NCBI GenBank assembly: GCA_944392785.1
Contig: CALXXW010000025.1
Location: 43,264 to 107,263 of the forward strand
Length of the DNA stretch: 64,000 nucleotides
Reading direction: 5' to 3'
Origin: an uncultured Alphaproteobacteria bacterium
GTDB taxonomy: Bacteria; Pseudomonadota; Alphaproteobacteria; CAAHEQ01; UBA3637
In this document: positions 2,911 to 42,322 of the stretch, piece by piece
Layout: every line of letters begins with the position of its first letter
Position numbering within the stretch: position 1 is the first letter of the stretch
Position numbers and translations under genes: made by a program
Notes under the pieces: generated by a model
What the model was told of the DNA's origin: nothing
The model's input: only the letters and a program-made list of their open reading frames with translations
Databases searched by the model: none

Positions 2911-3216
2911 TTATTTCAAAATTAAGTTTAAAAGAGCCGCACAAATGGCTGCTCCGGTTGAGACGGCAATCACGTTGATGATGGATTTGATGGGCGCAAT
3001 TTCAACACGCGGCACGAATTCGCGTCTTAAATTTTCATGAAAAACCTGACACGAAGCCTTTGGTTGAACCGTTCCCATAAAATTAATCAATTCGGTGTGC
3101 ACATCTGTAATTTGTGTTTTGGCTAAACATACTTCTTTTTTGATGTCGACCAGTTGTTTTTGCAGGGTATCGACTAAGGCCATCAATTTACCCAGCTCCA
3201 TAGAAATGGTTGCCAT
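2911..3216 (-). CDS. Coiled-coil protein with C-terminal transmembrane anchor (lysis accessory: holin/spanin-like candidate)
   Basis: Start trimmed to MATISMELGKL, which follows an AAGGAGAA RBS. The N-terminus is helical (LVDTLQKQLVDIKKEV) and the C-terminus is hydrophobic (IINVIAVSTGAAICAALLNLIL). It sits directly downstream of the endolysin. Confidence 0.5.
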   Translation of the reverse strand: MATISMELGKLMALVDTLQKQLVDIKKEVCLAKTQITDVHTELINFMGTVQPKASCQVFHENLRREFVPRVEIAPIKSIINVIAVSTGAAICAALLNLILK

Positions 3217-3238
3217 ATTTTTCTCCTTTTGTGAAGTG

Positions 3239-3652
3239 TTAATAGGTTGCATAAAAGAGTCGATTCCCAATCTCGGCCGAGGGAACTAAGGTCGTCGACC
3301 AAGCGGGATTATCGTCTAAGTCGTGATAAGAGGTGGCGCCGTTCGTTGGGTCGGACAAAAAGCCATTCATCGCTCTTTGAGCAACGCGCAGAGCCATTTG
3401 GAAAACTGAACTATCCCATGGAGGATTTATCAGTTCTTCCATCTGTGATACGGCAGGATTCCAGCATTTGAATTGAAAAGGCTTGAGGCAAATTTCCGAT
3501 AGCGTGTTTCCCCACCAGAAATCACCCTTTCTTTTCGCATGGTTAAGTCGATTCATAATGACGGAGGCAACGGCTTCCATACCTTTTAACCCCTCATGCT
3601 GCGCTTCACCAAAAAGCGTTTTGGCAAAAATAAGTAGATCATCAGTCATCAT
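3239..3652 (-). CDS. SleB-type cell wall hydrolase (phage endolysin)
   Basis: Hydrolase_2/SleB-like pattern LFGEAQHEGLKGMEAVASVIMNRL...FQFKCWNP...YH. The start overlaps the terminase stop. Confidence 0.8.
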   Translation of the reverse strand: MMTDDLLIFAKTLFGEAQHEGLKGMEAVASVIMNRLNHAKRKGDFWWGNTLSEICLKPFQFKCWNPAVSQMEELINPPWDSSVFQMALRVAQRAMNGFLSDPTNGATSYHDLDDNPAWSTTLVPSAEIGNRLFYATY

Positions 3653-5115
3653 ATTCTTCTCCAGTCCAGACGTCTTTGCGGATAAGGCGGTCGTTGTCCC
3701 AAGCGTATCGGTTCAACCGTTAGGCAGCCGGCAACAGCGTCCAATCCATCGTCATGCGTATGTGTATTAGCGGGATTAAAGTCCCTCAATTCGGTTAGAA
3801 AAGGTGTCTTTTTCACGGATTCATGAACAAATAGGGCTCCATTCATCAACGGCGGTTCTAGAGCGGCCAGAATGCGCGTGTTTTTATGGCTGCGAGCTGT
3901 TTCCTCGATGACGGCACAGGCGATTCCGGATCGTGCAAGCTCTTGGCGTAATAATGCCGGTAAGAATTTACCGATACCATTGGTCTCTAAATGGACCGCC
4001 GGCAAAAATAAATCGCGGACAAATGTCGCAACGGTTTGGCATTGATAGGCGGTTGCTTCTTGAGCCGGAGGTACGGTCATATACAGCAGACGGTGAATAA
4101 AGGCGTTGCCTGTCTCATCAAAAAAGACGCATGCAATAACACTTTTATCTCCGTTGAGGGCACCGAAAGCCGGATCCCACCAACAAGCCGCTCCACACAG
4201 TCGGTGCCCGGCGAGTTTGAGAACAGCCGTATTGTTGGCTTCCGTATAACACAGTTCGTCCGAGTAAAATCGCAGACGTTGTGCTTCCAGACGAGAGCTT
4301 TCCGGCGGTACGGCTTGCAGCATCATTTGACTGGCAAATTTGGTGGGCCCCGATCGTTTTTCAAGAGCTTGGATTTTAGCTAAATCAAAACGTTCCGGCC
4401 AGGCAGATTGTCCGTTTTGTGTCAATAAAGGAATTTTTAATACGGGCCAATGTTTCAAAAATCCGCTTGATGACGTATCATAAATTGTTTCATAGGTGTG
4501 AGGTGTCCCTACATATAAAGTCATGCCGCCCGGCGTTAAAATATAATCCAGCTCACTGAGCTTTCGGCGCAATTCAATCCGTTTATGAGACGTATCACAT
4601 GTTTTGGGAACCTCGACATCATCACAGATAATGACATCGGCACGACAACCTGTCATGTTGGCCATCAAGCCGCGCGCCAATACAGAGGGGTCTCGAAAAC
4701 CGGAACGGCGCACCACAGTAAAGCGATCAGAAGCCCACTCTTCACTTTTTGTTGGTTTCAATAAGTGCGTTAAAGGATGTGTTTCAATGATACGCTTCAT
4801 GTGGGTCGCCATTTTTTTGGCCAAGCTATGGTCTGCCGATAAAATTAACAAACGACATTCCGGGTTTTGCCATAGAATCCAAGCCCCGAACAGGCCGACC
4901 AATGTTGATTTCCCCGAGTTTCGAAAAGCCATCATCAGGGCATTTTTTTCTTCGGCTTGCCAACATTTTTCCAGGAAACGACACATGCGTTTGTGGTGAC
5001 GAGGCAAATGAAGCCCGGAAATTTCATCCCAAATCCAAACAAACTCTGTCAGAGAAAGAATCGGTTGTGCTGTCGGGCTCAAAGCCGGTGTTTTCGATAC
5101 TGTCATCGGGGTCAT
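3649..5115 (-). CDS. Phage terminase large subunit
   Basis: Walker A (FRNSGKSTL), Walker B (ADVIICDDVEV) and a C-terminal RNaseH-like nuclease region (ACWWDPAF...HDDGLDA). It lies last among the structural genes, as in T7-like genomes. The alternative start ATG at 5106 has better GGAGG spacing. Confidence 0.85.
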   Translation of the reverse strand: MTPMTVSKTPALSPTAQPILSLTEFVWIWDEISGLHLPRHHKRMCRFLEKCWQAEEKNALMMAFRNSGKSTLVGLFGAWILWQNPECRLLILSADHSLAKKMATHMKRIIETHPLTHLLKPTKSEEWASDRFTVVRRSGFRDPSVLARGLMANMTGCRADVIICDDVEVPKTCDTSHKRIELRRKLSELDYILTPGGMTLYVGTPHTYETIYDTSSSGFLKHWPVLKIPLLTQNGQSAWPERFDLAKIQALEKRSGPTKFASQMMLQAVPPESSRLEAQRLRFYSDELCYTEANNTAVLKLAGHRLCGAACWWDPAFGALNGDKSVIACVFFDETGNAFIHRLLYMTVPPAQEATAYQCQTVATFVRDLFLPAVHLETNGIGKFLPALLRQELARSGIACAVIEETARSHKNTRILAALEPPLMNGALFVHESVKKTPFLTELRDFNPANTHTHDDGLDAVAGCLTVEPIRLGQRPPYPQRRLDWRRI

Positions 5116-5374
5116 CCTCCAAAAGATAAGGGGCCGCCGCTCGTGCTTTTTGAATCCAATCCTCTAGGCGCGTATCTTGATGAGAAGCATCAAAAGGCTG
5201 TTCCAAACGGATTAACCTTTCCAATAACGCGATATGCGATAGGACGGCTTTACAGGCATTATGAAAAGCTGTAAATCCTTTCGCATCCATGGGGATAGAT
5301 TCTTGCCAGAGAGCGTCATATGTTGCCAAAGCATGTTCCAGGTATGGTTTTAACTTGGCGGATAAATCACACAT
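5024..5374 (-). CDS. Hypothetical phage protein (position compatible with a small terminase subunit)
   Basis: 116-aa ORF immediately upstream of terL, with a helical N-terminus and acidic tail. No motif recognised. It overlaps the terL start by 83-92 nt. Confidence 0.4.
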   Translation of the reverse strand: MCDLSAKLKPYLEHALATYDALWQESIPMDAKGFTAFHNACKAVLSHIALLERLIRLEQPFDASHQDTRLEDWIQKARAAAPYLLEDDPDDSIENTGFEPDSTTDSFSDRVCLDLG

Positions 5375-5393
5375 AGCGGCTCTCCTGTGTCAT

Positions 5394-5870
5394 TTATTTT
5401 AACAATGAACGACTGAGGCCACTTGAAATGTTGTTGAAGGAACTCAACAGATTTTGATTGTTTTGATTGGTCAGGCGCTGAGAGGTCAACAAATTGTTAG
5501 AACGCGTCTTTTCAATACCATTTAATAAGGCTTCTAAAGAGATATTGGCCTGATTCACCAAAAATTTATCGTCTGTATCATAGTCCCGTTGAAGGGCGTC
5601 CAGAACCGCTTGTCCTGTGCCGCTTTGTGAACTGAGACCACTGGCACCTAATTTGGCCTTATAGGCAGATTGTTGTTGTTTTAACAGATTTTTATTTTCT
5701 CGCCTTTCCTCGGCCAGAGTCAGCTGTGCTTGTTGTTTATCAAGTTCATAGGCTTGATTGGCTAAACGATTATTTTCTTTAGTTTGTTTGCGTTGTTCTT
5801 TGTTCCCTTTGTAGGCAAAGAATGCGGATGATGCTGCAGTTATAGCACTGGCAGCTGCTGCGACTTCCAT
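5394..5870 (-). CDS. Q/N-rich coiled-coil virion protein candidate (internal/neck protein-like)
   Basis: Hydrophobic N-terminus (AAAASAITAASSAFFAY) followed by a long coiled coil. It occupies the slot after the nozzle gene, where T7-like phages encode gp13/gp14. The assignment is positional only. Confidence 0.45.
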   Translation of the reverse strand: MEVAAAASAITAASSAFFAYKGNKEQRKQTKENNRLANQAYELDKQQAQLTLAEERRENKNLLKQQQSAYKAKLGASGLSSQSGTGQAVLDALQRDYDTDDKFLVNQANISLEALLNGIEKTRSNNLLTSQRLTNQNNQNLLSSFNNISSGLSRSLLK

Positions 5871-5872
5871 AA

Positions 5873-7792
5873 TTATCCTCCTATTTTTAAATCACTGGTG
5901 ACACTAACAAGTTGAAATTTTTTAGGCATTGAGCTGACAATTCGCCAAACGGGATCTGTCGGGCGTCTTCGCCATCCCAAAGCGCGGACCACAATATCTT
6001 CCGTGCGGGGTGTTAACATGTCATCTAATTGATATGATGCCAAAGGTTGTGTGAGTACCTGAGCAATCCCATTTCCCGTATCGATTTCTAACGATTCGGT
6101 ATCTATGACACGAAAGACTCCTTTGACCAACCGAACGCTGGAAACCGGAGCGGTACCGTTGCTGGAGCCGACCAAGGGTGGCAGTGGTGCTACTTCATGT
6201 GTGTAAGGAAGCCCAACCGTCACCTCTGAGGCGGCTATATCTATATCAATACATCCGTTTTGAATCGTTGTTTCCGGCAGAACGATTTGATCGGCAACAA
6301 TTTTAACCGTTTGATTGTTCAAAATACTCAGCCCGCTAAAGTGCGTTTGAGGCGTTTCCGTTTGTATCTTGAAGGCACAATCGACAAAATATCCCTCCTC
6401 AAAGCACTCCAGAAAAAATCGAGTCCCTCGGCGGATGACAAAGTAAGGTTTTTTACTGGCCATGGCGACCGATAAAAAAGAACCGGCTGTTTTTTGATGA
6501 GTAAAGCTTTGTAAATCTTCCGATCGAAAACTGGTCAACACACATAAATCACCCGTGCTCATGATGATATACGCTTGTCGGCTGTGTTTGTCATAAGCAA
6601 AGTCAATTGGGTTTTGAATCAGGTGTTCGGCCAGCAGAGATAAATCCGTTGCTTGATAGGCATCCTCTAAATCCGAAAACAGGAATTCTCGAATCTCTCG
6701 ACCATTTGCCGAGGCAAAAATAGTCGCACCGTCAATTCCTATCGGCGGGACAAAACGCTCTTCAGTAGAGCCGACCTGCGTTTGTCGTTTCAAAGCGATA
6801 CTGGTCGGTGTTAACGGATCGCCGGTCACCATCCACTCGGCATTTGTTGTGAAGACTTGCAGATGCCGTCCCGCGAACAAAGCGCAAATCACATTGGATT
6901 GATCCGATAGAATGCTGAAATCAATCCCTTCGCTGTCATAGCCGTCTCCTAGTTCAAAATTACTTAAATCACCGCTTTGGCTGAACCATAAATTATTGGG
7001 TAATTTTTTACTGCCGCCGAAAACCAAGCGTGACTGGTAAAAGGCGACACAAATCGGCCAACCATGCTCGTCGGAAAAAGTAGGCTCTCCCCAGACACGG
7101 GTCGGTTCTAAAGAAGGGTTTCCTTCGGTGTCGGTTAACAGCACTTTCTTGACGGTTGCTTTGGCACTGGTTGCCGAGACAATTTCATCTATAACAACAT
7201 AACCGGCGGCAAGTTTGAATGTTTTTCCGACATCACTGTCCGTAAAAACATCTGCCGAAGCCGTTAAGGTGACGCTACCCGTAATACCCGAACTGGCCAA
7301 CGTAATGTGGTCGGCACAGTATTTGTGATAAGGTTGTAAGACGATATCTCCCTCTTTTAAAAACTCAAAGTTTGTCAGCGTCCAGGTTCCTTCTTGTTGA
7401 CTGAGCTTTTGCGGACATGTATCCGGATGTGTCAAGAATAAATAGTCAGAACCTTGACACCAACGTACTTGATGAATTTGTGAAGTTGTCCAAGGTGTTT
7501 GTAAAGTCGTTATTTCTATTTCGTCTTTATAAATACGCATCAGCTTGTTTTGCAGCAAAATCAAATAGGATTTAGAACCGCTTTGTTCATAAGAAATTAA
7601 CCGTCCTTCACTGTTTAACTCCGCAACAAATTTTAATCCCGGGCGGCGATGAACACCTCCCGTCGGCTCAATAAAGACATTTGTCAAAGTAAGTGCCCCG
7701 TTGGCATAACTCGTCAAGTCAACACGTCCCAAAAGGTCATGAGATAACTCCCCTCCGGAAAAGTTGGTTTTTTGTGTAAATAAGCTGCTCAT
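5873..7792 (-). CDS. Tail tubular protein B / nozzle (T7 gp12-like)
   Basis: The N-terminus (LFTQKTNFSGGELSHDLLGRVDLTSYANGA...GGVHRRPGL) parallels T7 gp12 (ISQSIKNLKGGISQQPDILRYPDQGS...EGLQKRPPL). Size (639 aa) and position after the adaptor gene fit. Confidence 0.65.
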   Translation of the reverse strand: MSSLFTQKTNFSGGELSHDLLGRVDLTSYANGALTLTNVFIEPTGGVHRRPGLKFVAELNSEGRLISYEQSGSKSYLILLQNKLMRIYKDEIEITTLQTPWTTSQIHQVRWCQGSDYLFLTHPDTCPQKLSQQEGTWTLTNFEFLKEGDIVLQPYHKYCADHITLASSGITGSVTLTASADVFTDSDVGKTFKLAAGYVVIDEIVSATSAKATVKKVLLTDTEGNPSLEPTRVWGEPTFSDEHGWPICVAFYQSRLVFGGSKKLPNNLWFSQSGDLSNFELGDGYDSEGIDFSILSDQSNVICALFAGRHLQVFTTNAEWMVTGDPLTPTSIALKRQTQVGSTEERFVPPIGIDGATIFASANGREIREFLFSDLEDAYQATDLSLLAEHLIQNPIDFAYDKHSRQAYIIMSTGDLCVLTSFRSEDLQSFTHQKTAGSFLSVAMASKKPYFVIRRGTRFFLECFEEGYFVDCAFKIQTETPQTHFSGLSILNNQTVKIVADQIVLPETTIQNGCIDIDIAASEVTVGLPYTHEVAPLPPLVGSSNGTAPVSSVRLVKGVFRVIDTESLEIDTGNGIAQVLTQPLASYQLDDMLTPRTEDIVVRALGWRRRPTDPVWRIVSSMPKKFQLVSVTSDLKIGG

Positions 7793-8358
7793 CCGCGTAC
7801 CTCAATCAAGGAAAAGTCCTGAAACGCCGGCGGTACGGCCTGTTGACTGTCAACGAGGCGCGCTTGAGCGATTTCCGTATCGGCGATTTTGCATAAAAAT
7901 TCGGTGCGTGAGGTGCTTTCCGTCAAAGGCAGGCAGAATTCGGCGGCCAATTTGGCAACCAAAGCCTGCACAAAAAACGCCGGAAAAGATTCTTCACTCG
8001 GTCGCGCAATATAAGTCAAAATAACATGGTCACTGTCGGTATGGAGTTGTTGTTTGTGAATGCGATAGGAAAGTCCGGAACCTTTTAAACAATGTCCGGC
8101 CGAAATAATGCGCACGCAATCATTAGGTAAAGCGTATGCATATTTGAAATCGGCCGTTGGGTTAACGGCTAAGCGATTGAGTCGAACCTGCGTCAGAGCA
8201 AAGCGCCATGGATAGGCCGCCAGTAATCCGTCAACCGTCAAATCATAAAGCTGATCGGCAATATGTGCTTCGGCGGTTTCTTCCTCAAAAGATGAAATGC
8301 TTTGAGCTCCCAGTTTGATAAGCGCTCGAGAGCAAAGGCCTGTAGCTGTCATGGTCAT
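7789..8358 (-). CDS. Tail tubular protein A / head-tail adaptor (T7 gp11-like)
   Basis: Start trimmed to MTMTATG, which follows an AAGGAG RBS. Its 189 aa compare with 196 aa for T7 gp11. The N-terminal pattern (CSRALIKLGAQSISSFEE) resembles gp11 (VNDILASIGEPPVSTLEG). It overlaps the nozzle gene start. Confidence 0.55.
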   Translation of the reverse strand: MTMTATGLCSRALIKLGAQSISSFEEETAEAHIADQLYDLTVDGLLAAYPWRFALTQVRLNRLAVNPTADFKYAYALPNDCVRIISAGHCLKGSGLSYRIHKQQLHTDSDHVILTYIARPSEESFPAFFVQALVAKLAAEFCLPLTESTSRTEFLCKIADTEIAQARLVDSQQAVPPAFQDFSLIEVRG

Positions 8359-8378
8359 GATAAACTCCTTTTGATGAT

Positions 8379-8441
8379 AAAAACAAATTGCCACCCCTCT
8401 TTGGAAAGGGAAGGGATGCATGAAACAAGAGAGGTGGCAAT
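8379..8441 (-). terminator. Hairpin plus T-run immediately after the capsid gene (attenuator/terminator)
   Basis: The arms at 8387-8401 and 8427-8441 form a 15-bp stem. The single non-Watson-Crick position is G-U on the minus-strand RNA but C-A on the plus strand. TTGTTTTT follows on the minus strand. Confidence 0.5.
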
Positions 8442-8486
8442 TCAAAAAGATTCGGAATTGTCTTTATTCAGACAAAAACCGAATCA

Positions 8487-9332
8487 CTAAGCAGATGCGG
8501 CAGGTGTATCGGCAACATCCATTTTCACGACACCTTTCGGATCGATTAAGCAAGCTCCCTGACTCATCATATTGCTGACGAAGTGAGCGGCATAATCACC
8601 GTGCCAAGTGATATCCGTCTTAATGTCTTGCCCCGAGGCGTGTCCAACAGCCGAACGATGGTAGATAAAACAGGTATGTGAAGAGCTGGATGACGGTAAT
8701 CCGGTATGCATGATCCAGACAATCCCCATCCATTTCCGGCTTTCGGAGCCCGTTAGCATCGGATAGGCTTCCCCTACATAGTTGGCAGAAGAAAATTCCT
8801 CAATGGACAGCAGTTGATTCCACTGGGCCGGTCCGACCAAAGCATAACGCTCTCCATCATCAGGTACGTCGTTATTATTTAATAAGGTGAAAGCCTCTAA
8901 AATGCGCTCTTTTGTTAATCCTTCGGATGAGGTCCCGACGATTTGTGTGGCCTTATTCAACGCGTTGATGATCAACTCGTCCGTTTTGCGGCCCAAAGCA
9001 TAAGCACCAGCGGTTGCCAAAGCCGTCCGTTCATCATGCCCTGTTTTCAATTCATCCAATGAATCGATCCATTCTCCGGCATAATAGTCGGTCAACGTGC
9101 ATTCAACCGGTTCGTGTGTGACGTTGGAAGGTGTAATTTGTGCATTACGTGTCTTCGTCGTCGCGGCCATTTTCCCAATGACTTGGAATGTTGTCGAGGC
9201 GCCGCGGATATTGTTTTTAGAGCGGACTGTATTTTTCAGCTTCGATCCTTGTTGTTGATAGGCTGTATGGATATCTGCTTCAAAATGTTTAATAAAAGAT
9301 ATATCAATAGCCGTACTTGTTGTTTCAGACAT
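8487..9332 (-). CDS. Major capsid protein (HK97-fold candidate)
   Basis: 281-aa ORF directly after the scaffold gene, with a good RBS. The N-terminal pattern (FIKHFEADIHTAYQQQGSKLKNTV...TFQVIG) is typical of small podoviral coat proteins. The assignment is mainly positional. Confidence 0.7.
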   Translation of the reverse strand: MSETTSTAIDISFIKHFEADIHTAYQQQGSKLKNTVRSKNNIRGASTTFQVIGKMAATTKTRNAQITPSNVTHEPVECTLTDYYAGEWIDSLDELKTGHDERTALATAGAYALGRKTDELIINALNKATQIVGTSSEGLTKERILEAFTLLNNNDVPDDGERYALVGPAQWNQLLSIEEFSSANYVGEAYPMLTGSESRKWMGIVWIMHTGLPSSSSSHTCFIYHRSAVGHASGQDIKTDITWHGDYAAHFVSNMMSQGACLIDPKGVVKMDVADTPAASA

Positions 9333-9394
9333 AATTTTTATCCTTTCTGAGTTTCAATAAAATTGTTAAAATCACGTGGTGTGGTTATAGGTCC

Positions 9395-10195
9395 TCACCT
9401 GCCACTGCCAGCGTTTGAGCCGTAAAGGCGTTTAAAACCTTCCTCGACACGTTGAACCAGCTTGGGATCATGTTGACGCCAATACTTGGGATCTTGCATC
9501 AATCGACGAAGGGTTTCTTCTGTGTCGGCCCGTGGAGCGGGTTCTCGTTCGGACAGAAGAGGTGTTTCATTTCTCTCTTGCATCATCTGGTATAAGGCTA
9601 AAATACCATCTTTTGAGGAGGCAAGAATATCAAAAATTTCCGGGTTCAAATGTTTTTCCGCCCATGCGGATATTTGTCGTCCGATTTGATTAAATTGTTC
9701 GGGACCGCCGAATTCTTGTTCCAGAGCGGCCAGCTCTTTTTCCGTACGCACATCCGCTGATAGACTTTTTAAAACAGGAATAACTTTTTCGACAGCCAAA
9801 TCATAGACAGCTTGGGCTTGTTCATTCGTGAAACCAAGGTCGAAAAGCATTTTTTCCATTTCTGAATCGCGCTTCAATAATTCACTTTTGAGGGTGATAT
9901 GATAGTCTTCCGGTCTTTCCGGACGAACTCCAAACGACTGTGAACAGCGTTCGCTGAAACGACGTTCCAGAGCTAAATATGATTTGATCAATTCCTCTAG
10001 CTTGACTTCGCCTGTTTCGGGATTGATGAATTTAGCGGGTATGCGTAAAGATGTCGTAGACGAAGATGGTATTACGTCTGCTTCTGTCACTTGATTGTCT
10101 TGAAAGACACACGCTTCCGTCATGTTGGGTAGGTCTTTGGAATTCAAGTATTCAGGCTTGTTTTTTTTAATTGTTCGTTCTGTTTTTTTAGTCAT
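9395..10195 (-). CDS. Capsid scaffolding protein candidate
   Basis: Acidic, helix-rich 266-aa protein between the portal and capsid genes, as in T7 gp9. Confidence 0.55.
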   Translation of the reverse strand: MTKKTERTIKKNKPEYLNSKDLPNMTEACVFQDNQVTEADVIPSSSTTSLRIPAKFINPETGEVKLEELIKSYLALERRFSERCSQSFGVRPERPEDYHITLKSELLKRDSEMEKMLFDLGFTNEQAQAVYDLAVEKVIPVLKSLSADVRTEKELAALEQEFGGPEQFNQIGRQISAWAEKHLNPEIFDILASSKDGILALYQMMQERNETPLLSEREPAPRADTEETLRRLMQDPKYWRQHDPKLVQRVEEGFKRLYGSNAGSGR

Positions 10196-10385
10196 GTTCT
10201 TTTCCTTGTTTAATCAAGTTAATAATATGGGCGACCAACGCCCGTTGTCCCTCCAAAAAACGCAAAGCGGCATCACTTGTTTCCGGAGCAAGTGTGCGCT
10301 CCCATGTCAGATGTTTCAGGTGTTGAAGCACAACTTGCCCTTCGCGGGAGGAAAAAGTACGTGTAAAACTGGATGCAATGCTCAT
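10188..10385 (-). CDS. Small hypothetical phage protein
   Basis: 65-aa ORF translationally coupled to both the portal stop and the scaffold start (overlaps at both ends). Confidence 0.5.
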   Translation of the reverse strand: MSIASSFTRTFSSREGQVVLQHLKHLTWERTLAPETSDAALRFLEGQRALVAHIINLIKQGKEHD

Positions 10386-11896
10386 GCGATACCCCCACTC
10401 AAAAGAGGAACCTTAGGCGCTGGATTCAAGGTTTCATCGCCTTGAGTCACTTGTCTCAGAACGGCCAAGGGAATGTTAAGGCGTTCACCAAACCATTTCA
10501 CAAATGCCGCCACGTCTACTTGTTTTAATCCTTCATCACCCAGTCGTGTAATGGTGTTGAGCCATACCATGGCATTGTTCGCATCAATTTGTCCTTGTTT
10601 ATCGGAGCGAGGTGATTGATAGGTAATTTTCATTAATCGACCGTCAATAAAGACATCAGGAATCTCGCCGCGTTTACGAAGAATGGATGTTGCTCGATCG
10701 ATTAAAGGGACTAAAAGTTCGCTTTGTAAACGACCATAGGTTGCTCCTAAAATTCGCATCATTTCATCTGAACGCTCTAACACTTCCGTTGCGGTCATGG
10801 CCGGTGTGTCGGTTTGTCCAAGAGTATCGCCTAACAAGGCATGCCGGATTCGACTTCTTAAATCCTCTATCATTAATTGCGAGACGTCAAATTTCCCGGG
10901 AGCCTCTAGGGCCGTCAGTCCTTTCGAACCGACCGCCTTGGGAATGATAGCTCCGGGGGTCAGCTGGATGTTAGCCGGATTTAAGACGCCATCGTCTTCA
11001 GCTAACCAAATTCCCGTCACGGCAATAGAGGCATTTTTTAAAATCAACTCGACAACTTTGTTTGCGGTTTTAATGTCGGGCAATGCCTTCATGACGGGAG
11101 AACGTCCATAGACCTCTCCCGGAGCTTTTAGCCAGCGGAAAGAAATAAACGGCGATGTGTCGAAAATAGCTTCTTTTAAGACACAATTAAAACCGTTTAG
11201 GGAATCATACTGGCTGTCGGGTTCGATAAATACCGTATAACGATAACCTCCTTTAAGAAGAGGAATCACGGCTTCGATAACCGAAATAGGCTTTTTGTCT
11301 TTATCGTGTTCGTCGACGAATTTTTGAGGAAAATCAATTTCCGGAAAGCGTCCTTTCAACGCATCCAGTGTCATCAAAGAATGTCGAAAGGTTTTATCCA
11401 AACGTCCGCTGTGTCCTTCTGCCAAACAAATTTCCGACAACGGGATGGCTGTAAAGCGAAAAGCTGAGGCGCTTCCGAAAGGGGCCTCTTCAAATAACAA
11501 ACAGGCCGTTCCCGTCGTGATAAGATCCAAATAGCATTGATGGACCTCTAGCCCAAAGTTTGAACGGTCAAAATGATTGTGTAATGTGGTTGAAATACGC
11601 TCCAGAATAGGGCCGGCCTCCACACGCTCGTCTTCGGACAAGTCTGTTCCGGCCGTTAGTTGAAACCAGCGCAACCACGGCGGCGTCATGTCAGATAAAA
11701 TTTGTGCCGCCAGTTGATCAACAGCATCCGGTGCCGTCCCATCAAACAAAAGATTTACTTTGTTCGTTGTTGTTTTAAACGTGCTTTCGCGTTGAGGAAA
11801 GGCAAACTCATAACACTCTTGCCACACGCTTTCCCATTGAGCGCGATGAGCCAATGCCTTTTTATATTGATGATATAGATCTTGAATATCGGTCAT
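10382..11896 (-). CDS. Podovirus-type portal (head-to-tail connector, T7 gp8-like)
   Basis: 504 aa. The N-terminus (YKKALAHRAQWESVWQECYEFAFPQRE) parallels T7 gp8 (YERLKNDRAPYETRAQNCAQYTIPSLFP). GGAG RBS. It is the first gene of the structural block. Confidence 0.8.
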   Translation of the reverse strand: MTDIQDLYHQYKKALAHRAQWESVWQECYEFAFPQRESTFKTTTNKVNLLFDGTAPDAVDQLAAQILSDMTPPWLRWFQLTAGTDLSEDERVEAGPILERISTTLHNHFDRSNFGLEVHQCYLDLITTGTACLLFEEAPFGSASAFRFTAIPLSEICLAEGHSGRLDKTFRHSLMTLDALKGRFPEIDFPQKFVDEHDKDKKPISVIEAVIPLLKGGYRYTVFIEPDSQYDSLNGFNCVLKEAIFDTSPFISFRWLKAPGEVYGRSPVMKALPDIKTANKVVELILKNASIAVTGIWLAEDDGVLNPANIQLTPGAIIPKAVGSKGLTALEAPGKFDVSQLMIEDLRSRIRHALLGDTLGQTDTPAMTATEVLERSDEMMRILGATYGRLQSELLVPLIDRATSILRKRGEIPDVFIDGRLMKITYQSPRSDKQGQIDANNAMVWLNTITRLGDEGLKQVDVAAFVKWFGERLNIPLAVLRQVTQGDETLNPAPKVPLLSGGIA

Positions 11897-11911
11897 AAAA
11901 ACTCCTTGGTC

Positions 11912-11940
11912 AAAAGAAAAACCCGCCTGCTTTAGACGGG
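11912..11940 (-). terminator. Rho-independent terminator directly upstream of the portal RBS
   Basis: The minus strand reads CCCGTC-taaagca-GGCGGG followed by TTTTTCTTTT. It ends about 15 nt before the portal ATG. Confidence 0.6.
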
Positions 11941-11975
11941 TCTGTTTTGTCAGCTAAAATACAACTATTACGATT

Positions 11976-12005
11976 AAACGGTCTTGATTGATATCAAGAC
12001 CGTTT
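11976..12005 (-). terminator. Perfect 13-bp hairpin after the 144-aa gene
   Basis: AAACGGTCTTGAT-tgat-ATCAAGACCGTTT. It lies 33 nt downstream of the stop at 12038. The flanking T-run is weak. Confidence 0.45.
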
Positions 12006-12037
12006 TGATTTAATCGATTTAGATATACGTTTCCCTG

Positions 12038-12472
12038 CTAACTGAAAGTCACTTTATCATACTTTTTTTCTGTTGTCAAGGAAAATTTTCCTTTTTTTAA
12101 TTTTAAATAACAAAAAAGTTGATATGGCGTGAACAGAAAAGGGGCTTCTATACCTAGAAAACGCTTGACTGTTTCAACGCAGGTATAGGGGCGCAGTCGT
12201 GCCGGCGTCAGTTTGGGAATAGAGGGCGTCGCGCGTAAAAGTTTATATCCTTTGTCTCGAAAAAAAGCCCGAATCGTGATATGCTTTAACAAAATAAGGT
12301 CTGTATAGTGTCTGAGCGGATCAATGACAATCCATTCGTGACCGTTGCCCAAGATAAGCAAGCAATGATAAAAGCCTTTTTTTAAAAAGTGCATCCACCA
12401 TAGTGTGGGTTGCCCGCCAAAAGCAACGAATGCAAAAGGATAACGATATCCAACGGCAAGTGATGTTTTCAT
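12038..12472 (-). CDS. Hypothetical protein with His...Cys signature (possible permuted papain-like fold)
   Basis: 144-aa ORF with an AGGGAGA RBS. It contains GNGHEWIVIDP and a later YTCVETVKRFLGI. No confident family assignment. Confidence 0.55.
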   Translation of the reverse strand: MKTSLAVGYRYPFAFVAFGGQPTLWWMHFLKKGFYHCLLILGNGHEWIVIDPLRHYTDLILLKHITIRAFFRDKGYKLLRATPSIPKLTPARLRPYTCVETVKRFLGIEAPFLFTPYQLFCYLKLKKGKFSLTTEKKYDKVTFS

Positions 12473-12495
12473 AAATTCTCCCTTCTTTTTAGGAA

Positions 12496-12864
12496 TCAGG
12501 CATTTGCGCCGGGGGAAACAATCCCCTTTTGGGATAAAATTTTATCCAGAAAATGTAGGGCTTCTTGCCATAGTCGACAGATTCGCGGTGTGTCTCCGAA
12601 ATGGGGGTGGGGCGGGACTTGCTCAAAACCATAATGAGATAGGATTTTGATGTGCTCCGGTTTTAAAAGCCCTTCAGTAGCCAGCCGCTTGACAGCAATA
12701 AAGATGTCGGATGATTCACAAGGGCGAATCGTTTTCGGGGTATACCCTTTTGTTCGTTGTTTGGCATTTTTTTCGCATAAACAATACCAAAACCAAGCTT
12801 CCTCAGAGGTTTCAAAAGGTGTTGCTTTTTGATTGTTTATGTGTGAGCGGTAAATATTCCTCAT
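12496..12864 (-). CDS. Hypothetical early/regulatory protein of the phage-like cluster
   Basis: Start trimmed to MRNIYRSH, which follows an AAAGGAGA RBS. It is the first gene transcribed from the SOS-box promoter. Cys/His-rich. Family not recognised. Confidence 0.55.
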   Translation of the reverse strand: MRNIYRSHINNQKATPFETSEEAWFWYCLCEKNAKQRTKGYTPKTIRPCESSDIFIAVKRLATEGLLKPEHIKILSHYGFEQVPPHPHFGDTPRICRLWQEALHFLDKILSQKGIVSPGANA

Positions 12865-12891
12865 AGTATCTCCTTTCGTCTGTAAAAAATG

Positions 12892-12906
12892 GAACAAAAT
12901 AGGAAC
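12892..12906. promoter_or_regulatory. LexA (SOS) box, alphaproteobacterial type
   Basis: Exact GAAC-aaaatag-GAAC direct repeat, 28-42 nt upstream of the 12864 start. It overlaps the -10 region that lies downstream of a TTGACT -35 on the minus strand. Confidence 0.6.
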
Positions 12907-12957
12907 TATCACTAAAAAAATAGGAAGTCAAGTATAAAATAAGAAAAAAATCCTATT
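12896..12957. promoter_or_regulatory. Three copies of AATAGGA (two direct, one inverted): candidate repressor operators
   Basis: AAAATAGGAA occurs at 12896-12905 and 12917-12926. An inverted TCCTATT at 12951-12957 overlaps the -35 of the repressor promoter. Confidence 0.3.
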
Positions 12958-13027: not shown

Positions 13028-13696
13028 ATGAATGCAGATCGTCAACAGTCAGGAGAGGGAATGCAACTGACTTACGAAGAAATTTGGGTCGGAATCGAAA
13101 ATTTGGCTTCCCGTGAGGGACTCTCTCTATCCGCTCTGGCGACAAAGGCGGGATTGGATCCGACAAGTTTCAATAAATCTAAAAGGTTGGGAGCAGATGG
13201 TCGTAAACGTTGGCCTTCAACCGAAAGCATGAACAAGGTCCTGCAAGCGACAAATACCACTATTTTTGAATTTATGGAGCTGGCGGGTCAACCCTATTGT
13301 CCTAAGGCCAAGACCATACCCTTGCTGGGGTTAGCCAAGGCGGGACGAGAGGGGTATTTTGATTCTTCGGGATCGCCATTGGGATTGGACTCTTGGGATG
13401 GTATTGATTTTCCGCTTCAGTTGAAGGAAAGGGTCTATGCCTTAGAGGTATCTGGTAATAGTATGGAGCCGGCTTATCGGGATGGAGATAAATTGATTGT
13501 TTCACCGGATGCCGAGATTCGTAAGGGGGATCGGGTTGTCGCCAAACTGTCGACGGGCGAGGTGATGGTGAAAGAGTTATTGCGTCAATCGGCCCGACAA
13601 ATAGAGCTCAGGTCTTTAAATCCTTTGCACGAAGATATTGTGATGAATGCCGCGGATGTTTTATGGATGGCGCGCGTTATTTGGGTGAGTCAATAG
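13028..13696 (+). CDS. CI/LexA-like repressor (HTH + S24 autopeptidase)
   Basis: N-terminal HTH (LSLSALATKAGLDPTSFNKSKR), Ala-Gly candidate cleavage site (LAKAGREG), and catalytic Ser (SGNSMEP) and Lys (VVAKL). It is divergent from the phage-like cluster. Confidence 0.85.
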   Translation: MNADRQQSGEGMQLTYEEIWVGIENLASREGLSLSALATKAGLDPTSFNKSKRLGADGRKRWPSTESMNKVLQATNTTIFEFMELAGQPYCPKAKTIPLLGLAKAGREGYFDSSGSPLGLDSWDGIDFPLQLKERVYALEVSGNSMEPAYRDGDKLIVSPDAEIRKGDRVVAKLSTGEVMVKELLRQSARQIELRSLNPLHEDIVMNAADVLWMARVIWVSQ

Positions 13697-13773: not shown

Positions 13774-14268
13774 ATGCAAAAGAACGAACGTTTTTTATAT
13801 GTTGTCAGGCATGGAGCCGTTGAAAAATCGGCACCTATTCTGAGTGATTTTAATCGTGGGTTGAGTCCGTTAGGGGTGCGTCAAACCCTGAGATTGGTCG
13901 AAAAATTAAGAAATTCTCTATTGCCCTGTCCGGATTTAGTCGTTGCCTCTTCAGCTTTGCGCACACGTCAAACCGCGACACTTTTAGAGCCTTTTTTATC
14001 TGAACCGAAAGAGGCTTTATTTTTAGATGCGCTATATTTAGCGCCGCCTCATCGTATTTTTGGTGTCTTGGATATGCTGGACTCTATTTATCAGACGGTT
14101 TTGTTAATTGGTCATCATCCGGGGCTGACTCGTTTTTTGGATGAGGCAACAAAGACAAAACACTCACCTTCCATAGAGGAGGGCGGTTGTGTCGTGTTAA
14201 AAGCACCTTTGACGCAATCATGGGCTGAAATCAGTTTAGAGGATTTTAAAATCGAAGATATTTTATAA
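13774..14268 (+). CDS. sixA: SixA-like phosphohistidine phosphatase
   Basis: Histidine phosphatase RHG motif (YVVRHGAV), SSALRTRQTA, and GHHPGL. Confidence 0.75.
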   Translation: MQKNERFLYVVRHGAVEKSAPILSDFNRGLSPLGVRQTLRLVEKLRNSLLPCPDLVVASSALRTRQTATLLEPFLSEPKEALFLDALYLAPPHRIFGVLDMLDSIYQTVLLIGHHPGLTRFLDEATKTKHSPSIEEGGCVVLKAPLTQSWAEISLEDFKIEDIL

Positions 14269-14340
14269 CAAAGACTTGCAAAGAGGGGTGTTCTTGTGCT
14301 ACACACTATCCTGCTAAGATGAGGAGCAAGGTCTACGCCC

Positions 14341-16157
14341 ATGAAGGTAAAAACAGGAACAAAACGAAAAAAACACTTTGTTGTGACGGTTGAAACGGCT
14401 CAGGCATTGACCGACGCACAAAAGGCTCGATTGACTCGGCAGCTTGCCGATGTTTTGGAAGTTGAACAGGTTCGTCTGAAAGAGTTGTTGAACCCTGATT
14501 TGTTGGGAGGCGTGCGCCTACATCTGGATGCTTTGGTCGTAGATGCCTCTGTTCGTGGTCGCTTGGAGCAATTTAAAACAGAGATGGAGGCATATGTTTC
14601 TCCATCCATGGATGTTCCCAAGTTGACGCATTTGTTTTTGGATAAAATTAAGGCGTTTGAGGGTAAACCGTTTATGACCGAAATCGGAACGGTTCTTTCT
14701 GTTTCCGACGGGGTTGCTAAGGTTTCCGGTCTGCCTTCTGTGATGGCCGGAGAGCGTGTTCGGTTTAGCGGAGGTCAACAGGGAATGGCTCTGAACTTAT
14801 TGCCGGACAGTGTTGATATTACCTTGTTTGATGAAGCGGATACGATTCGTGAGGGGGATAGTGTTTTTCGGGATAATCATATGAATGAAATACCGGTTGG
14901 CTTGTCTTTGGCCGGCCGCGTTATCAACCCGTTAGGTCAGGTGCTGGATGATAAGGAAAGTCTGCTGCATTTGGCGCGTCGTCCGGTAAATATGCCGGCT
15001 CCCGGGATTATCGATCGTGATAAAGTGCATGTGCCTTTGCAAACGGGTATTTTGGGTATTGATTCTTTATTTCCGATAGGGCGCGGACAGCGAGAATTGA
15101 TTATCGGCGATCGTCAAACGGGTAAAACGACGTTGATTGTTGATATGATTTTAAGCCAGAAAAAACAAAATGATGCGGCTCAAAGTTTTAAGGATAAAGT
15201 TTTTTGTGTTTATGTCGCTATCGGACAGAAGCAATCAACCGTGCGGGATATGGTGCGTGTTTTACGACGTGAAGGAGCCATGGACTATACAACCGTGGTT
15301 GTCGCAACGGCTTCGGATAGTGCCGCCCTTCAGTATTTAGCCCCGTATGCCGGTTGTGCGATTGGTGAATTTTTCCGAGATAATGGTATGCATGCATTGA
15401 TTTTTTATGATGATTTGTCAAAACATGCGGTGGCCTATCGTGAAATGTCTTTATTGCTGAAGCGTCCGGCCGGGCGAGAGGCTTTTCCGGGGGATATTTT
15501 CTATCTACATTCAAAACTGTTGGAGCGAGCGGCTCAATTATCCGAGGCAAAAGGAGGTGGCTCTTTGACAGCCATTCCTGTGGTTGAAACGCAAGAGGGT
15601 GATGTGTCGGCCTATATTCCGACCAACGTTATTTCAATTACCGATGGTCAAATTTTTCTGGACACTTCTTTATTCCATGAGGGAGTTCGTCCTGCCATCA
15701 ATGTAGGTTTATCGGTCAGTCGCGTCGGTTCGGCCGCACAGGTTGCCGCTATGAAACAGGTTTCGGCTTCTTTAAAACTGGATTTGGCGCAATATCGTGA
15801 AATGTTGTCTTTTGCTCAGTTGTCTTCAGATTTAGATTCGTCGACTCAGGCATTGCTTAATCGAGGAGCCCGGTTAACAGAAGTGATGAAACAAACGCCT
15901 TATCATCCTTACACACGAGCGCAAGAGGTTTTGGCGCTGTGGATTGCGCAGAAGGGCTATTTGGATAAAATAGCCATTCAAGATGTTTCCTCTTTCATCA
16001 ATGATGTGGAAAAGGCGGCTCCGTTTTCCATTTCTGATGTGATGCAGGAAATTCAACAAACGGGATGCTTAACTCAGGAAATAGAAGCGCGGCTGCAGGC
16101 TTTTCTGGATGACTATGTGGCTCAATCCTGTAAGGCGGGGAAAAAGGATACGGGCGC

Positions 16158-16161
<4 letters not shown>
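14341..16161 (+). CDS. atpA: F1 ATP synthase alpha subunit with N-terminal fusion of the delta (OSCP) C-terminal domain
   Basis: Residues ~10-85 (VTVETAQALTDAQKARLTRQL...LNPDLLGGVRLHLDALVVDASVRGRLEQF) match the C-terminal domain of AtpH. From ~aa 92 the protein is a canonical alpha (IGTVLSVSDGVAKVSGL, Walker A GDRQTGKTT). Total 606 aa versus the usual ~510. Confidence 0.9.
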
Positions 16162-19106
<2,945 letters not shown>

Positions 19107-19107
<1 letters not shown>

Positions 19108-22430: not shown

Positions 22431-23180
22431 ATGTCAGAGAAAATAATGGGCTATATTCATTCGGTTGAAACAATGGGGGCTGTGGATGGTCCCGGATTGC
22501 GATATGTTGTCTTTATGCAAGGATGCCCGTTTCGTTGTCTGTTTTGTCATAATCCTGATACATGGCAGGTATTATCCTCACATCGTCAGTCTGTGGACAC
22601 GGTTTTGGCCGATATTTTGAAGTACCGGGATTTTTTTCGTTTCTCCGGTGGTGGCGTGACTTTATCCGGTGGAGAGCCCTTGATGCAACCGGAATTTGTG
22701 CGCGCTTTGGTCGGAGAGTTGCGAAAAGCCGGTATTCATGTCGCCATTGATACGTGCGGTTATGTGGATTTAAATGAAGATATCCAAGATATCGTTGCTC
22801 AAGCGAATTTGTTCTTATTGGATATAAAGCATTTGGATAATACCATTCATCAACAGCTGACGGGTAAACCGAATGATAAGACGTTGGCATTTCTGGATTT
22901 CTTACGGCAAAAGAAAAAACATACATGGATTCGTATTGTCTTACTTCCGGGATATAATATGGATGACGCTTATACGGCTCGGTTAATCGATTTTCTACGT
23001 CCGTATGAAAATGTGGATAAAATAGAGCTGTTGCCTTATCATGACAAAGGTAAGATAAAATGGCAAGAGTTAGGATTGACTTATCAGTTGGAACACATAA
23101 TGCCTCCCACTCAAGCGGCTGTAGAACCGATTGTAAACCGCTTGAGACAGGCCGGCTATGATGTTTTGGTTAATATGTAG
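22431..23180 (+). CDS. pflA: Pyruvate formate-lyase activating enzyme (radical SAM)
   Basis: CPFRCLFCHNPDTW cluster motif; GGGVTLSGGEP; 249 aa. Confidence 0.95.
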   Translation: MSEKIMGYIHSVETMGAVDGPGLRYVVFMQGCPFRCLFCHNPDTWQVLSSHRQSVDTVLADILKYRDFFRFSGGGVTLSGGEPLMQPEFVRALVGELRKAGIHVAIDTCGYVDLNEDIQDIVAQANLFLLDIKHLDNTIHQQLTGKPNDKTLAFLDFLRQKKKHTWIRIVLLPGYNMDDAYTARLIDFLRPYENVDKIELLPYHDKGKIKWQELGLTYQLEHIMPPTQAAVEPIVNRLRQAGYDVLVNM

Positions 23181-23580
23181 CCGCCGCTGGTTGCACTTCG
23201 GGGGGGGTCGTCGATGTGCGATGTTCTTCTGCCCGCGAGGGAGCGTTTTTCCGGTCCATGTCACGGTCCACACGCTCAAATAATTTTTCGTTCACATCGG
23301 CATAAGGATCTTCGCCGTTTAAAACCTTTTGAGTGGGGGTTAGGGTTGTTTTTAACAAACTGCCGTCTATACCGCTCTTTTGGCTTAAAGAGGCACTCTG
23401 TGTCCTGGTATATTGCAGTAATCGATAGATGTTTTGTGTGGCACGCACGCGCTGTTCATCGGGTGTGATATCTAATAACCACCAAGCCAATAAGACAAAG
23501 CAGGTCCCGTAAATAGCCAGTCGAATGGCTAAATAAATCAAACGAAAAATGGTTTTTTGTGTGAAAGAAATTAAATTCAT
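23170..23580 (-). CDS. Hypothetical membrane-anchored protein
   Basis: 136-aa ORF with N-terminal TM helices (LIYLAIRLAIYGTCFVLLAWWLL). No recognised domain. Confidence 0.4.
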   Translation of the reverse strand: MNLISFTQKTIFRLIYLAIRLAIYGTCFVLLAWWLLDITPDEQRVRATQNIYRLLQYTRTQSASLSQKSGIDGSLLKTTLTPTQKVLNGEDPYADVNEKLFERVDRDMDRKNAPSRAEEHRTSTTPPEVQPAAATY

Positions 23581-39193: not shown

Positions 39194-39236
39194 ATGAACT
39201 CCTGTTCTTTGTTAGGTCAATACACTGATTGTCCAT

Positions 39237-39265
39237 CTTTTACTCTTTTTTCCCCTTCCTGTCAA
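39237..39265 (-). promoter_or_regulatory. Promoter candidate for the 36698-39193 autotransporter
   Basis: Minus strand: TTGACA, a 17-nt spacer, TAAAAG. Confidence 0.35.
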
Positions 39266-39281
39266 TCTCTTTTTTTACAGA

Positions 39282-39311
39282 AAAACCGCTCCTTTTTGCT
39301 GGGGCGGTTTT
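39282..39311 (-). terminator. Hairpin after the upstream autotransporter gene
   Basis: AAAACCGC-14 nt-GCGGTTTT, 32 nt downstream of the stop at 39343. The T-run is part of the stem, so the call is weak. Confidence 0.35.
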
Positions 39312-39342
39312 CTGTTTTTGTCGTTGATATTATTCGCGGACA

Positions 39343-41995: not shown

Positions 41996-42322
41996 ATGTT
42001 CTTAAAACCGCACAAAGGGGGATATATGCTATCTGTACGTGTGATGCCGAATGCTCGGCATAATGGTATAGAGGGTATATGGAATGAGACATTTGTTAAA
42101 ATAGCGCTTTCGGCGCCGGCGGTTGATGGTAAGGCTAATGAAGCGCTGATTTCTTTAATAGCGGATAGGCTTCATATCAGAAAAAGTGCCGTTTCCTTAA
42201 TTTCCGGAATTAAGTCTCGGGAAAAACGTTTGGGAATTCATGGGGAATTACCGTCGGAGACAGTCGCCGCTTTTGAAGAAGAAATAAGAGCGACATGTCA
42301 ATCAGGGAAAGCACTTTATTGA
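41996..42322 (+). CDS. DUF167 (YggU-like) protein
   Basis: VRVMPNARHNGIEGIWNE...ALSAPAVDGKANEALISLIADRL pattern. Confidence 0.7.
   Translation: MFLKPHKGGYMLSVRVMPNARHNGIEGIWNETFVKIALSAPAVDGKANEALISLIADRLHIRKSAVSLISGIKSREKRLGIHGELPSETVAAFEEEIRATCQSGKALY

Follow-up and report, generated by a model that had tools for sequence, protein, structure and literature searches.

A window of 64,000 nucleotides from an uncultured alphaproteobacterium (contig CALXXW010000025.1 of GenBank assembly GCA_944392785.1; all positions are those of the window unless another locus is named) carries an F1 ATP synthase operon whose first gene encodes the delta subunit's (OSCP) C-terminal domain, without the N-terminal domain of that subunit, fused in frame to a normal alpha subunit. 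We regard the encoded protein as almost certainly a real and functional fused stator attachment, and we infer from it a remodelled or multiplied peripheral stalk. The full explanation that we favour, in which an F1 head would bind more than one stalk, is drawn by analogy with an engineered enzyme, and we give it a probability of roughly 0.45. The parts of the fusion gene are the following.

14269..14340, plus strand: spacer of 72 nt between a sixA-like gene and the fusion gene (sequence)
14321-14326, plus strand: GAGGAG, a Shine-Dalgarno-like motif 14 nt ahead of the ATG at 14341
14341..16161, plus strand: the fusion gene, 606 aa, an F1 alpha with built-in delta C-terminal domain (Pfam)
14341..14361, plus strand: lysine-rich N-terminal tail, residues 1-7 (MKVKTGT), predicted to be disordered, with a predicted local distance difference test score (pLDDT) below 50 for residues 1-8
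14362..14586, plus strand: delta/OSCP C-terminal domain (PF00213), residues 8-82, responsible for binding to the b-subunit stalk
14491-14511, plus strand: NPDLLGG, in the delta C-terminal domain (sequence)
14539-14565, plus strand: VDASVRGRL, in the delta C-terminal domain (sequence)
14587..14607, plus strand: linker, residues 83-89 (EAYVSPS), gapless in 54 of 55 homologues
14608..16161, plus strand: complete alpha, residues 90-606 (TIGR00962)
14614-14655, plus strand: alpha N-terminal helix, residues 92-105
14680-14865, plus strand: alpha beta-barrel, residues 114-175
15046-15720, plus strand: alpha nucleotide-binding domain, residues 236-460
15106-15129, plus strand: P-loop (Walker A) GDRQTGKT, residues 256-263, invariant in 55 homologues
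15739-16113, plus strand: alpha C-terminal domain, residues 467-591

An earlier note on this DNA had described a gap of 72 nt between sixA and the first F1 gene, a delta C-terminal domain in the first ~85 residues of the 606-aa open reading frame (ORF) followed by a normal alpha, the absence of the delta N-terminal domain, the lack of a separate atpH at the locus, and an elongated gamma subunit, and all of these observations were borne out. The sixA-like gene ends at 14268, and the ORF, which holds the stretch ...LNPDLLGGVRLHLDALVVDASVRGRLEQF..., matched the Pfam OSCP profile PF00213 significantly over residues 8-82, corresponding to profile positions 98-172 of 172, with 55-59 bits against a cutoff of 22.3 and E-values of 1e-14 for the whole protein and 6e-16 for its first 100 residues. 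Nothing in the fusion protein matched positions 1-97 of that profile, which represent the N-terminal helical bundle of delta, and the NCBIfam delta models likewise matched through their last ~75 positions only and remained below their full-length cutoffs (47.8 against 57.5 for TIGR01145). A longer N-terminus is impossible, because an in-frame stop closes the frame 18 nt 5' of the ATG, the stop-bounded ORF starting at 14323. After the OSCP domain come the three alpha domains ATP-synt_ab_N (PF02874), ATP-synt_ab (PF00006) and ATP-synt_ab_C (PF00306), and the atpA equivalog model TIGR00962 scored 707.8 bits, against a cutoff of 484.45, over residues 96-596 (profile positions 8-501 of 503); since residue 96 corresponds to profile position 8, the alpha sequence is complete from about M90 onwards. 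The model for the alpha of alternate F1Fo/N-ATPases, TIGR03324, gave 546.1 bits, below its cutoff of 750.5. The basic residues of the N-terminal tail run on to K11, and fused homologues carry 8-17 residues ahead of the first strand, often rich in K or R. The linker derives from the former end of atpH together with the intergenic spacer, and a scan for promoters and terminators around the 72-nt spacer gave no sites above chance.

As for a separate delta, a hidden Markov model built from 78 full-length deltas found, on a scaffold of 84 kb comprising the window and 10 kb on each side, positions 103-177 only, inside the fusion ORF, and in the loci of fused relatives positions 95/103-177 only, again always within the fusion ORF. 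The same model found a full delta (positions 2-177) 5' of atpA in four unfused controls. No separate atpH was thus present in the operon, in the 84 kb scaffold or in the loci of five fused relatives, and an exhaustive search gave no close stand-alone delta either, the best ones having ~40-50% identity and those with named sources coming from other phyla. In two of the relatives (loci L089 and L091), an ORF of 102-103 aa lying 5' of the fusion was considered as a detached delta N-domain and rejected, as it encodes a small membrane protein with no OSCP match.

The fusion is far from confined to the window. An initial view of it as unique, based on a search with the N-terminal 134 residues that had matched stand-alone deltas only, was overturned by full-length and exhaustive searches. 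When homologues from NCBI, ENA, JGI and Logan were clustered at 90% identity, all of the best 120 clusters of the full-length search (120/120) had OSCP plus the three alpha domains, with 57-67% identity and lengths of 596-638 aa. Five contigs, representing no fewer than three samples, carry the identical 606-aa protein, contigs of up to 257 kb hold a 99% identical variant, and assemblies made independently of one another from separate samples (ERZ28613547, ERR14965394, ERZ28614090) show the same junction. The sample accessions gave no matches in the literature. Named fused homologues in nr come from alphaproteobacterial metagenome-assembled genomes and are labelled merely "subunit alpha", examples being MBR5130390.1, MBQ7412791.1, MBQ9090376.1, MBO7244946.1, MBR6412439.1 and MBR6730213.1.

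Residue conservation and junction counts were obtained from an alignment of 55 of the fused homologues. Within the delta part, G57, D68, G73 and F78 were invariant, and in 57 diverged fused homologues the reading frame ran from the delta part into alpha free of stops and frameshifts. The residue equivalent to M90 was Met in 8 of the 55, with L in 19, V in 16, S in 4, I in 4, A in 2, G in 1 and Q in 1, and because this Met is not kept in 47 of the 55, a conserved internal start of alpha is excluded. For the pair L084 and L087, the ratio of non-synonymous to synonymous substitution rates (dN/dS) was ~0.16-0.18 in the delta part, with saturated dS, and 0.09 in the alpha part. Because the junction is uninterrupted and gapless, signature residues are invariant, dN/dS is low and M90 is not kept, the delta segment can be taken to be translated as part of the same polypeptide as alpha and to be under purifying selection. 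One locus with a shorter gene was also seen: at L086 (173-661; protein P0013) a fused-type gene stops after 162 aa, having covered the delta C-domain and the first portion of the alpha barrel, and the genes beyond it are unrelated, with TGT on the opposite strand; either the copy is truncated, or the locus was rearranged, or the contig is chimeric.

A structural model of the fusion protein was made with AlphaFold2 from a 55-sequence alignment without templates (predicted template modelling score, pTM, 0.79; mean pLDDT 79). In this model the delta part forms a beta-alpha-beta-beta-beta-alpha unit with pLDDT of 83-89, after which come the alpha N-terminal helix (residues 92-105) and then the barrel. 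The C-domains of delta from Paracoccus (5DN6_H) and Bacillus PS3 (6N2Y_I) align with this delta part, as does 9JC1_I. PDB entry 9JC1, with the title "Engineering of ATP synthase", is the structure of Ueno et al., and in a Foldseek search against the PDB its chains I, K and J ranked first, second and fourth, with TMq of 0.79-0.83, root-mean-square deviations of 3.3-3.8 A and 578 aligned columns, whereas ordinary alphas gave ~0.72-0.77 and 480-510 columns. The best match, 9JC1_I (TM 0.83), is annotated as "ATP synthase delta subunit, ATP synthase subunit alpha" and was colinear with residues 19-580 also by phmmer. The predicted fold of the fusion thus superimposes on the engineered alpha of 9JC1, in which the delta C-domain without its N-domain is joined to alpha (deltaDeltaN-alpha).

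Downstream of the fusion gene the operon has the F1 order atpA-atpG-atpD-atpC, with the genes overlapping or abutting at their starts and stops (14341-19107), and the gamma subunit is ~60 residues longer than usual.

16158..17249, plus strand: atpG, gamma, 363 aa, matched by PF00231 over residues 3-356 against 282 profile positions
16341-16379, plus strand: gamma insertion 1, about residues 62-74
16782-16940, plus strand: gamma insertion 2, the larger one (~50 aa), about residues 209-261, beyond the point that matches E. coli gamma residue ~200
17246..18688, plus strand: atpD, beta, 480 aa, 71-81% identical to the beta of fused relatives (Pfam)
18685..19107, plus strand: atpC, epsilon, 140 aa (Pfam ATP-synt_DE_N)

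For comparison we used 80 unfused alphaproteobacterial loci from a GTDB scan, selected through exact matches to peptide patterns that lie for the most part within the alpha core, which makes the sample a biased one; none of the 80 carried the fusion, and they served as an unfused control set only. In all nine fusion-bearing loci, L084, L087, L089 and L091 among them, gamma measured 360-363 aa and had both insertions, whereas it measured 250-332 aa in 77 unfused loci, mostly 280-306 aa, and the long gamma thus co-occurred strictly with the fusion in this sample. The complete arrangement of fusion, gamma of 360-363 aa, beta and epsilon without atpH was seen in 5 distinct relatives.

The same controls suggest how the fusion could have arisen. 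A delta match was found in 35 of the 80, directly 5' of atpA, and in many unfused relatives atpH and atpA lie in the same frame, 1-12 codons apart, so that the loss of one stop codon would fuse them. The alpha of all 80 starts 0-15 residues from the M90 position (at most 7 in all but three), and is always preceded by a stop. When the alpha parts were placed in a neighbour-joining tree, one branch of the unrooted tree separated the 57 fused from the 80 unfused sequences. Midpoint rooting seemed to break up the fused set, an effect of where the root falls given the long branch of L084/L087; without a root the split is clean. Given this split, the same linker length and the same gamma insertions, the fusion, its linker length and the long gamma are shared derived characters of one lineage, which has diverged to ~50% alpha identity. 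The alpha part of the window protein is closest to alphaproteobacterial and mitochondrial alphas, and for that reason, and because Acidaminococcus belongs to Bacillota, an origin independent of the Acidaminococcus fusion described below is most likely, although sequences from that genus were not in the tree.

How might such an enzyme work? With the delta C-domain made as the first ~85 residues of alpha, every alpha of the alpha3beta3 head would bear its own docking site for a b stalk, as in the engineered analogue, while the delta N-domain, which normally covers the pseudo-threefold axis and holds the enzyme to a single stalk, would be gone. Since there would be three docking sites and an uncapped axis, the F1 head could bind more than one b/b' stalk, and up to three. 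Each stalk would recruit its own a-subunit to the c-ring, thereby multiplying the H+/ATP ratio, and the outcome would be ATP synthesis at low proton-motive force (pmf) or more protons pumped per ATP in reverse. An anaerobic life at low pmf would fit, because pyruvate formate-lyase (Gly_radical domains) and its radical-SAM activase are encoded directly 3' of the operon (Pfam), and a rubrerythrin gene lies near the operon of one fused relative. That the native enzyme has two or more stalks we judge, from the analogy, to be just short of an even chance. More tentatively still, we would picture a deep alphaproteobacterial clade with two or three stalks and a-subunits, a co-evolved long gamma, an H+/ATP ratio of two to three times c-ring size/3 and an adaptation to low pmf, reached independently of Acidaminococcus and Chloroflexus.

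Several points weigh against a native multi-stalk enzyme. To our knowledge no natural deltaDeltaN-alpha enzyme has yet been characterised. Occupancy in the engineered enzyme was heterogeneous, with 1-3 stalks and ~2 a-subunits on average (PMC12229609), so that fusion permits extra stalks without forcing them. No genes for Fo a, b/b' or c were found in the 84 kb scaffold or in the loci of relatives by tblastn and phmmer; the Fo of this enzyme, its c-ring size and its stalk and a-subunit stoichiometry are therefore presumptive. Finally, two fused relatives each have one in-frame TGA inside alpha, which, if these are true stops, would point to an operon decaying within a section of the clade. With regard to these sites, that of L084 (3988-3990, with the same site in L085) corresponds to I, L or Y in others and that of L087 (1517-1519, with the same site in L088) to V in L084; the two differ in location, two independent samples showed each of them, and apart from the TGA the frame is unbroken. 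Gene callers split these alphas into 214/234 + 366 aa, and nearly all other genes on the TGA-bearing loci end in TAA. Recoding or readthrough in a sub-lineage could account for the TGA codons, as could young pseudogenes.

The main rival is a single-stalk enzyme, in which the fusion would simply replace the non-covalent contact between delta and alpha, two of the three delta C-domains would remain unoccupied and H+/ATP would be unchanged. We consider this a distinct possibility, if one that we would not bet on. It agrees with the one-stalk classes seen at each of three positions in the engineered enzyme (PMC12229609), with a canonical operon stoichiometry, which usually gives one a-subunit per complex, and with the lack of Fo data from the 84 kb. 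Against it, removal of the delta N-domain and fusion of the C-domain to alpha were alone sufficient to load ~2 a-subunits on average in Bacillus PS3 (PMC12229609), and a natural two-stalk F1Fo exists (PMC12002316). The total and long-kept loss of the delta N-domain across a deep clade also suggests a selected new property, although it is compatible with neutral replacement as well. A separate delta, either full-length or an N-domain, encoded elsewhere in the genome could still cap F1, leaving the fused C-domain as an extra or redundant tether; the inspected sequence is 84 kb of a genome. We find it unlikely, as the slot 5' of atpA that holds atpH in unfused loci now holds the delta C-domain remnant, the operon contexts of five relatives contain no delta N-domain nearby, and the exhaustive search gave no close stand-alone delta.

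The other alternatives we consider very improbable. An F1-like ATPase uncoupled from Fo, either soluble or serving as a re-purposed motor like the F1-like clusters of Mycoplasma, might be proposed from the missing Fo genes in 84 kb, the unusual gamma and an operon adjoining a phage-derived block. Yet alpha scored far above the atpA cutoff with the alternate-F1 and Mycoplasma-type models below theirs, epsilon is present, and the sole known role of the conserved delta C-domain is to bind the b stalk; moreover, in Alphaproteobacteria the Fo genes are normally found in an operon separate from that of F1. Hardly more credible is a decaying remnant, in which the delta segment, untranslated or without relevance, would be left over from a deleted atpH and alpha translated from M90 (ATG at 14608). 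The alphas of unfused relatives do begin at the position of M90, there is a GGAGG 17 nt 5' of its codon, and the nearby prophage-like block could have caused a deletion; the uninterrupted frame in 57 homologues, the gapless junction, the retention of Met in 8 of 55 only, with S, A, G or Q there in 8, the invariant OSCP signature residues and the delta dN/dS of 0.16-0.18 all contradict it. As the source is a metagenome scaffold, a chimeric join or binning error could also be imagined to have removed the 5' half of atpH, but this possibility, which the earlier note had raised as an assembly deletion, is effectively refuted by the recurrence of the junction and architecture in independent assemblies and in more than 120 related clusters.

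The surroundings of the operon include the following genes.

13774..14268, plus strand: sixA-like histidine phosphatase gene (Pfam His_Phos_1, E-value 1e-5)
23170-23580, minus strand: gene for a small membrane protein, homologue (at 23257-23541) of the 102-103 aa ORF of L089 and L091
23601-24323, plus strand: ygjP-like gene, adjoining the gene for the small membrane protein
36698-41850 and 42316-44940, minus strand: region encoding Chlamydia-PMP repeat and fucosyltransferase proteins (Pfam)

The sixA-like gene occupies the place of atpH in unfused Alphaproteobacteria, and a homologue of it lies directly 5' of the fusion in L084 and L085 (tblastn, E-value 2e-9). The small membrane protein and ygjP-like genes are directly 5' of the fusion in L089 and L091, and in the window 4 kb 3' of atpC, past a glycosyltransferase gene and the pyruvate formate-lyase genes, which shows that the neighbourhood of the operon was rearranged in the window lineage. 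Further 5', at 2911-12912 on the minus strand, there is a T7-like structural block with genes for a hydrolase, terminase, gp14-like protein, nozzle (639 aa), capsid, scaffold, Bbp19-like protein and portal, and a divergent gene for an S24/LexA-like repressor lies at 13028-13696. The block is located 5' of the operon in the window and 3' of atpC in relatives (L089 16613-21818, L091 14888-21845), and its proteins are 39-86% identical to those of the relatives, the larger structural ones 55-86%, about as diverged as housekeeping proteins. The block may derive from a phage and have been retained vertically, resembling a gene transfer agent, or it may be a prophage with a conserved site. Chlamydia-PMP repeats occur in two large proteins, of which one also has an autotransporter beta-domain, and a protein of 874 aa has fucosyltransferase domains of families 10 and 11; together these hint at a host-associated surface biology. 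An Rfam scan of the window found one tRNA only.

The exhaustive search also returned wider delta families from public metagenomes, mostly fragments. Some start with a delta C-domain followed by alpha without an N-domain (P0027, P0038, P0048, P0059, P0153) and have sequences unlike the alphaproteobacterial family, while full-length delta-alpha fusions also exist (P0025, 699 aa), with P0024 likewise among the fusion-type matches. Proteins P0008, P0012 and P0073 combine one N-domain with three tandem OSCP C-domains in 360-412 aa, and P0011, P0014, P0015, P0016 and P0023 have two C-domains and no N-domain in 141-153 aa; some other matches look like frameshifted or miscalled fragments. Multiplied C-domains may be another route to several stalk-binding sites, and nature seems to have tried multiplying the delta C-domain repeatedly.

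For a long time c-ring size was regarded as the sole determinant of the H+/ATP ratio. The engineered fusion and the Chloroflexus enzyme, both from 2025, have made it clear that the number of stalks and a-subunits can set it too. Ueno et al. asked whether fused-type multi-stalk enzymes occur naturally, citing three proteins of one Firmicute group, and the fixation of the same solution in a large and diverse alphaproteobacterial clade, with at least 120 clusters, now supplies many natural sequences for expression and imaging. It suggests that the architecture evolved convergently, and has a bearing on bioenergetics in Alphaproteobacteria that are anaerobic and probably host-associated. It also exposes a systematic annotation gap, the fused proteins being labelled "subunit alpha" only.

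Among known systems the closest is the engineered enzyme of Ueno et al. (bioRxiv 2024; Nat Commun 2025;16:5410; PMC12229609), who reasoned that FoF1 is held to a single stalk by the delta N-domain with its place on the pseudo-threefold axis. From Bacillus PS3 delta they removed residues 2-104, joining the remaining C-domain to alpha via GSGG, which raised b and a per gamma 2.0-2.4 times, gave an H+/ATP ratio of 5.9 compared to 3.1 and allowed ATP synthesis at half the pmf; cryo-electron microscopy resolved classes with one, two or three b2 stalks, each with its own a-subunit, the single-stalk classes occurring at each of three positions and the average being ~2 a-subunits (PMC12229609). That design and the window protein have in common a delta C-domain only, a short linker and a full alpha. 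The engineered protein is artificial, of Firmicute sequence (~50% identity), with a GSGG linker and a truncated epsilon, whereas the window enzyme is natural, with 7 native linker residues, a full-length epsilon and a gamma longer by ~60 residues. What the earlier note proposed, a stalk-binding domain on every alpha, has been shown by experiment for a fusion engineered to this same design (PMC12229609), and for the native enzyme the step to several stalks is still an inferred one.

Ueno et al. also pointed to a natural delta-alpha fusion without the delta N-domain in the operon of Acidaminococcus fermentans (D2RLW6; also G4Q3K6 and A0A1I2C5T3), and called native multi-stalk enzymes likely but unverified (PMC12229609). 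Both this fusion and that of the window lie in a natural atp operon, lack the delta N-domain and have the C-domain fused to alpha, with function predicted in either case, and both belong to an anaerobe or to an organism with anaerobic markers; Acidaminococcus is a member of the Negativicutes (Bacillota) and the window derives from Alphaproteobacteria. The alphaproteobacterial fused clade and its long gamma have no mention in Ueno et al., and among the papers searched none was found that mentions either.

In the Chloroflexus F1Fo of Zhang et al. (PNAS 2025; PMC12002316), two stalks and two a-subunits are held by a dimer of shortened delta N-domains. It is, like the window enzyme, a natural F-type with an altered delta N-domain, each delta C-domain docking on the N-terminal barrel of an alpha, and there too the alteration lifts the one-stalk limit. 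Its delta is a separate protein with a shortened, dimerising N-domain (delta2b4a2), whereas in the window the N-domain is wholly absent and the C-domain covalently present on every alpha, which would allow three sites. The mycobacterial b-delta fusion (7JG5 chain d) similarly joins a stalk component to a neighbouring subunit, its delta part matching the same C-domain (NF009961), but the partner is b rather than alpha, and the delta N-domain and a single stalk are kept. In N-ATPases a b subunit with a delta-like C-terminus (TIGR03321; a weak match, E-value 8e-6) also has a domain resembling the delta C-domain on another subunit without the N-domain, there however on b, while the window alpha is a bona fide atpA. 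V/A-type ATPases resemble the proposed arrangement in having several separate stalks, two or three of the EG type, on a head with an uncapped top (PMC12002316), although their stalk proteins are unrelated, they have a single a-subunit, and they share no sequence relationship with the window fusion. The earlier note had taken the present architecture to be undescribed, which does not hold, as it was engineered and noted in Acidaminococcus in 2024-2025 (PMC12229609) and many alphaproteobacterial examples are present in nr as alpha; deltaDeltaN-alpha is an already described architecture, and the window gene is a widespread alphaproteobacterial member of that type.

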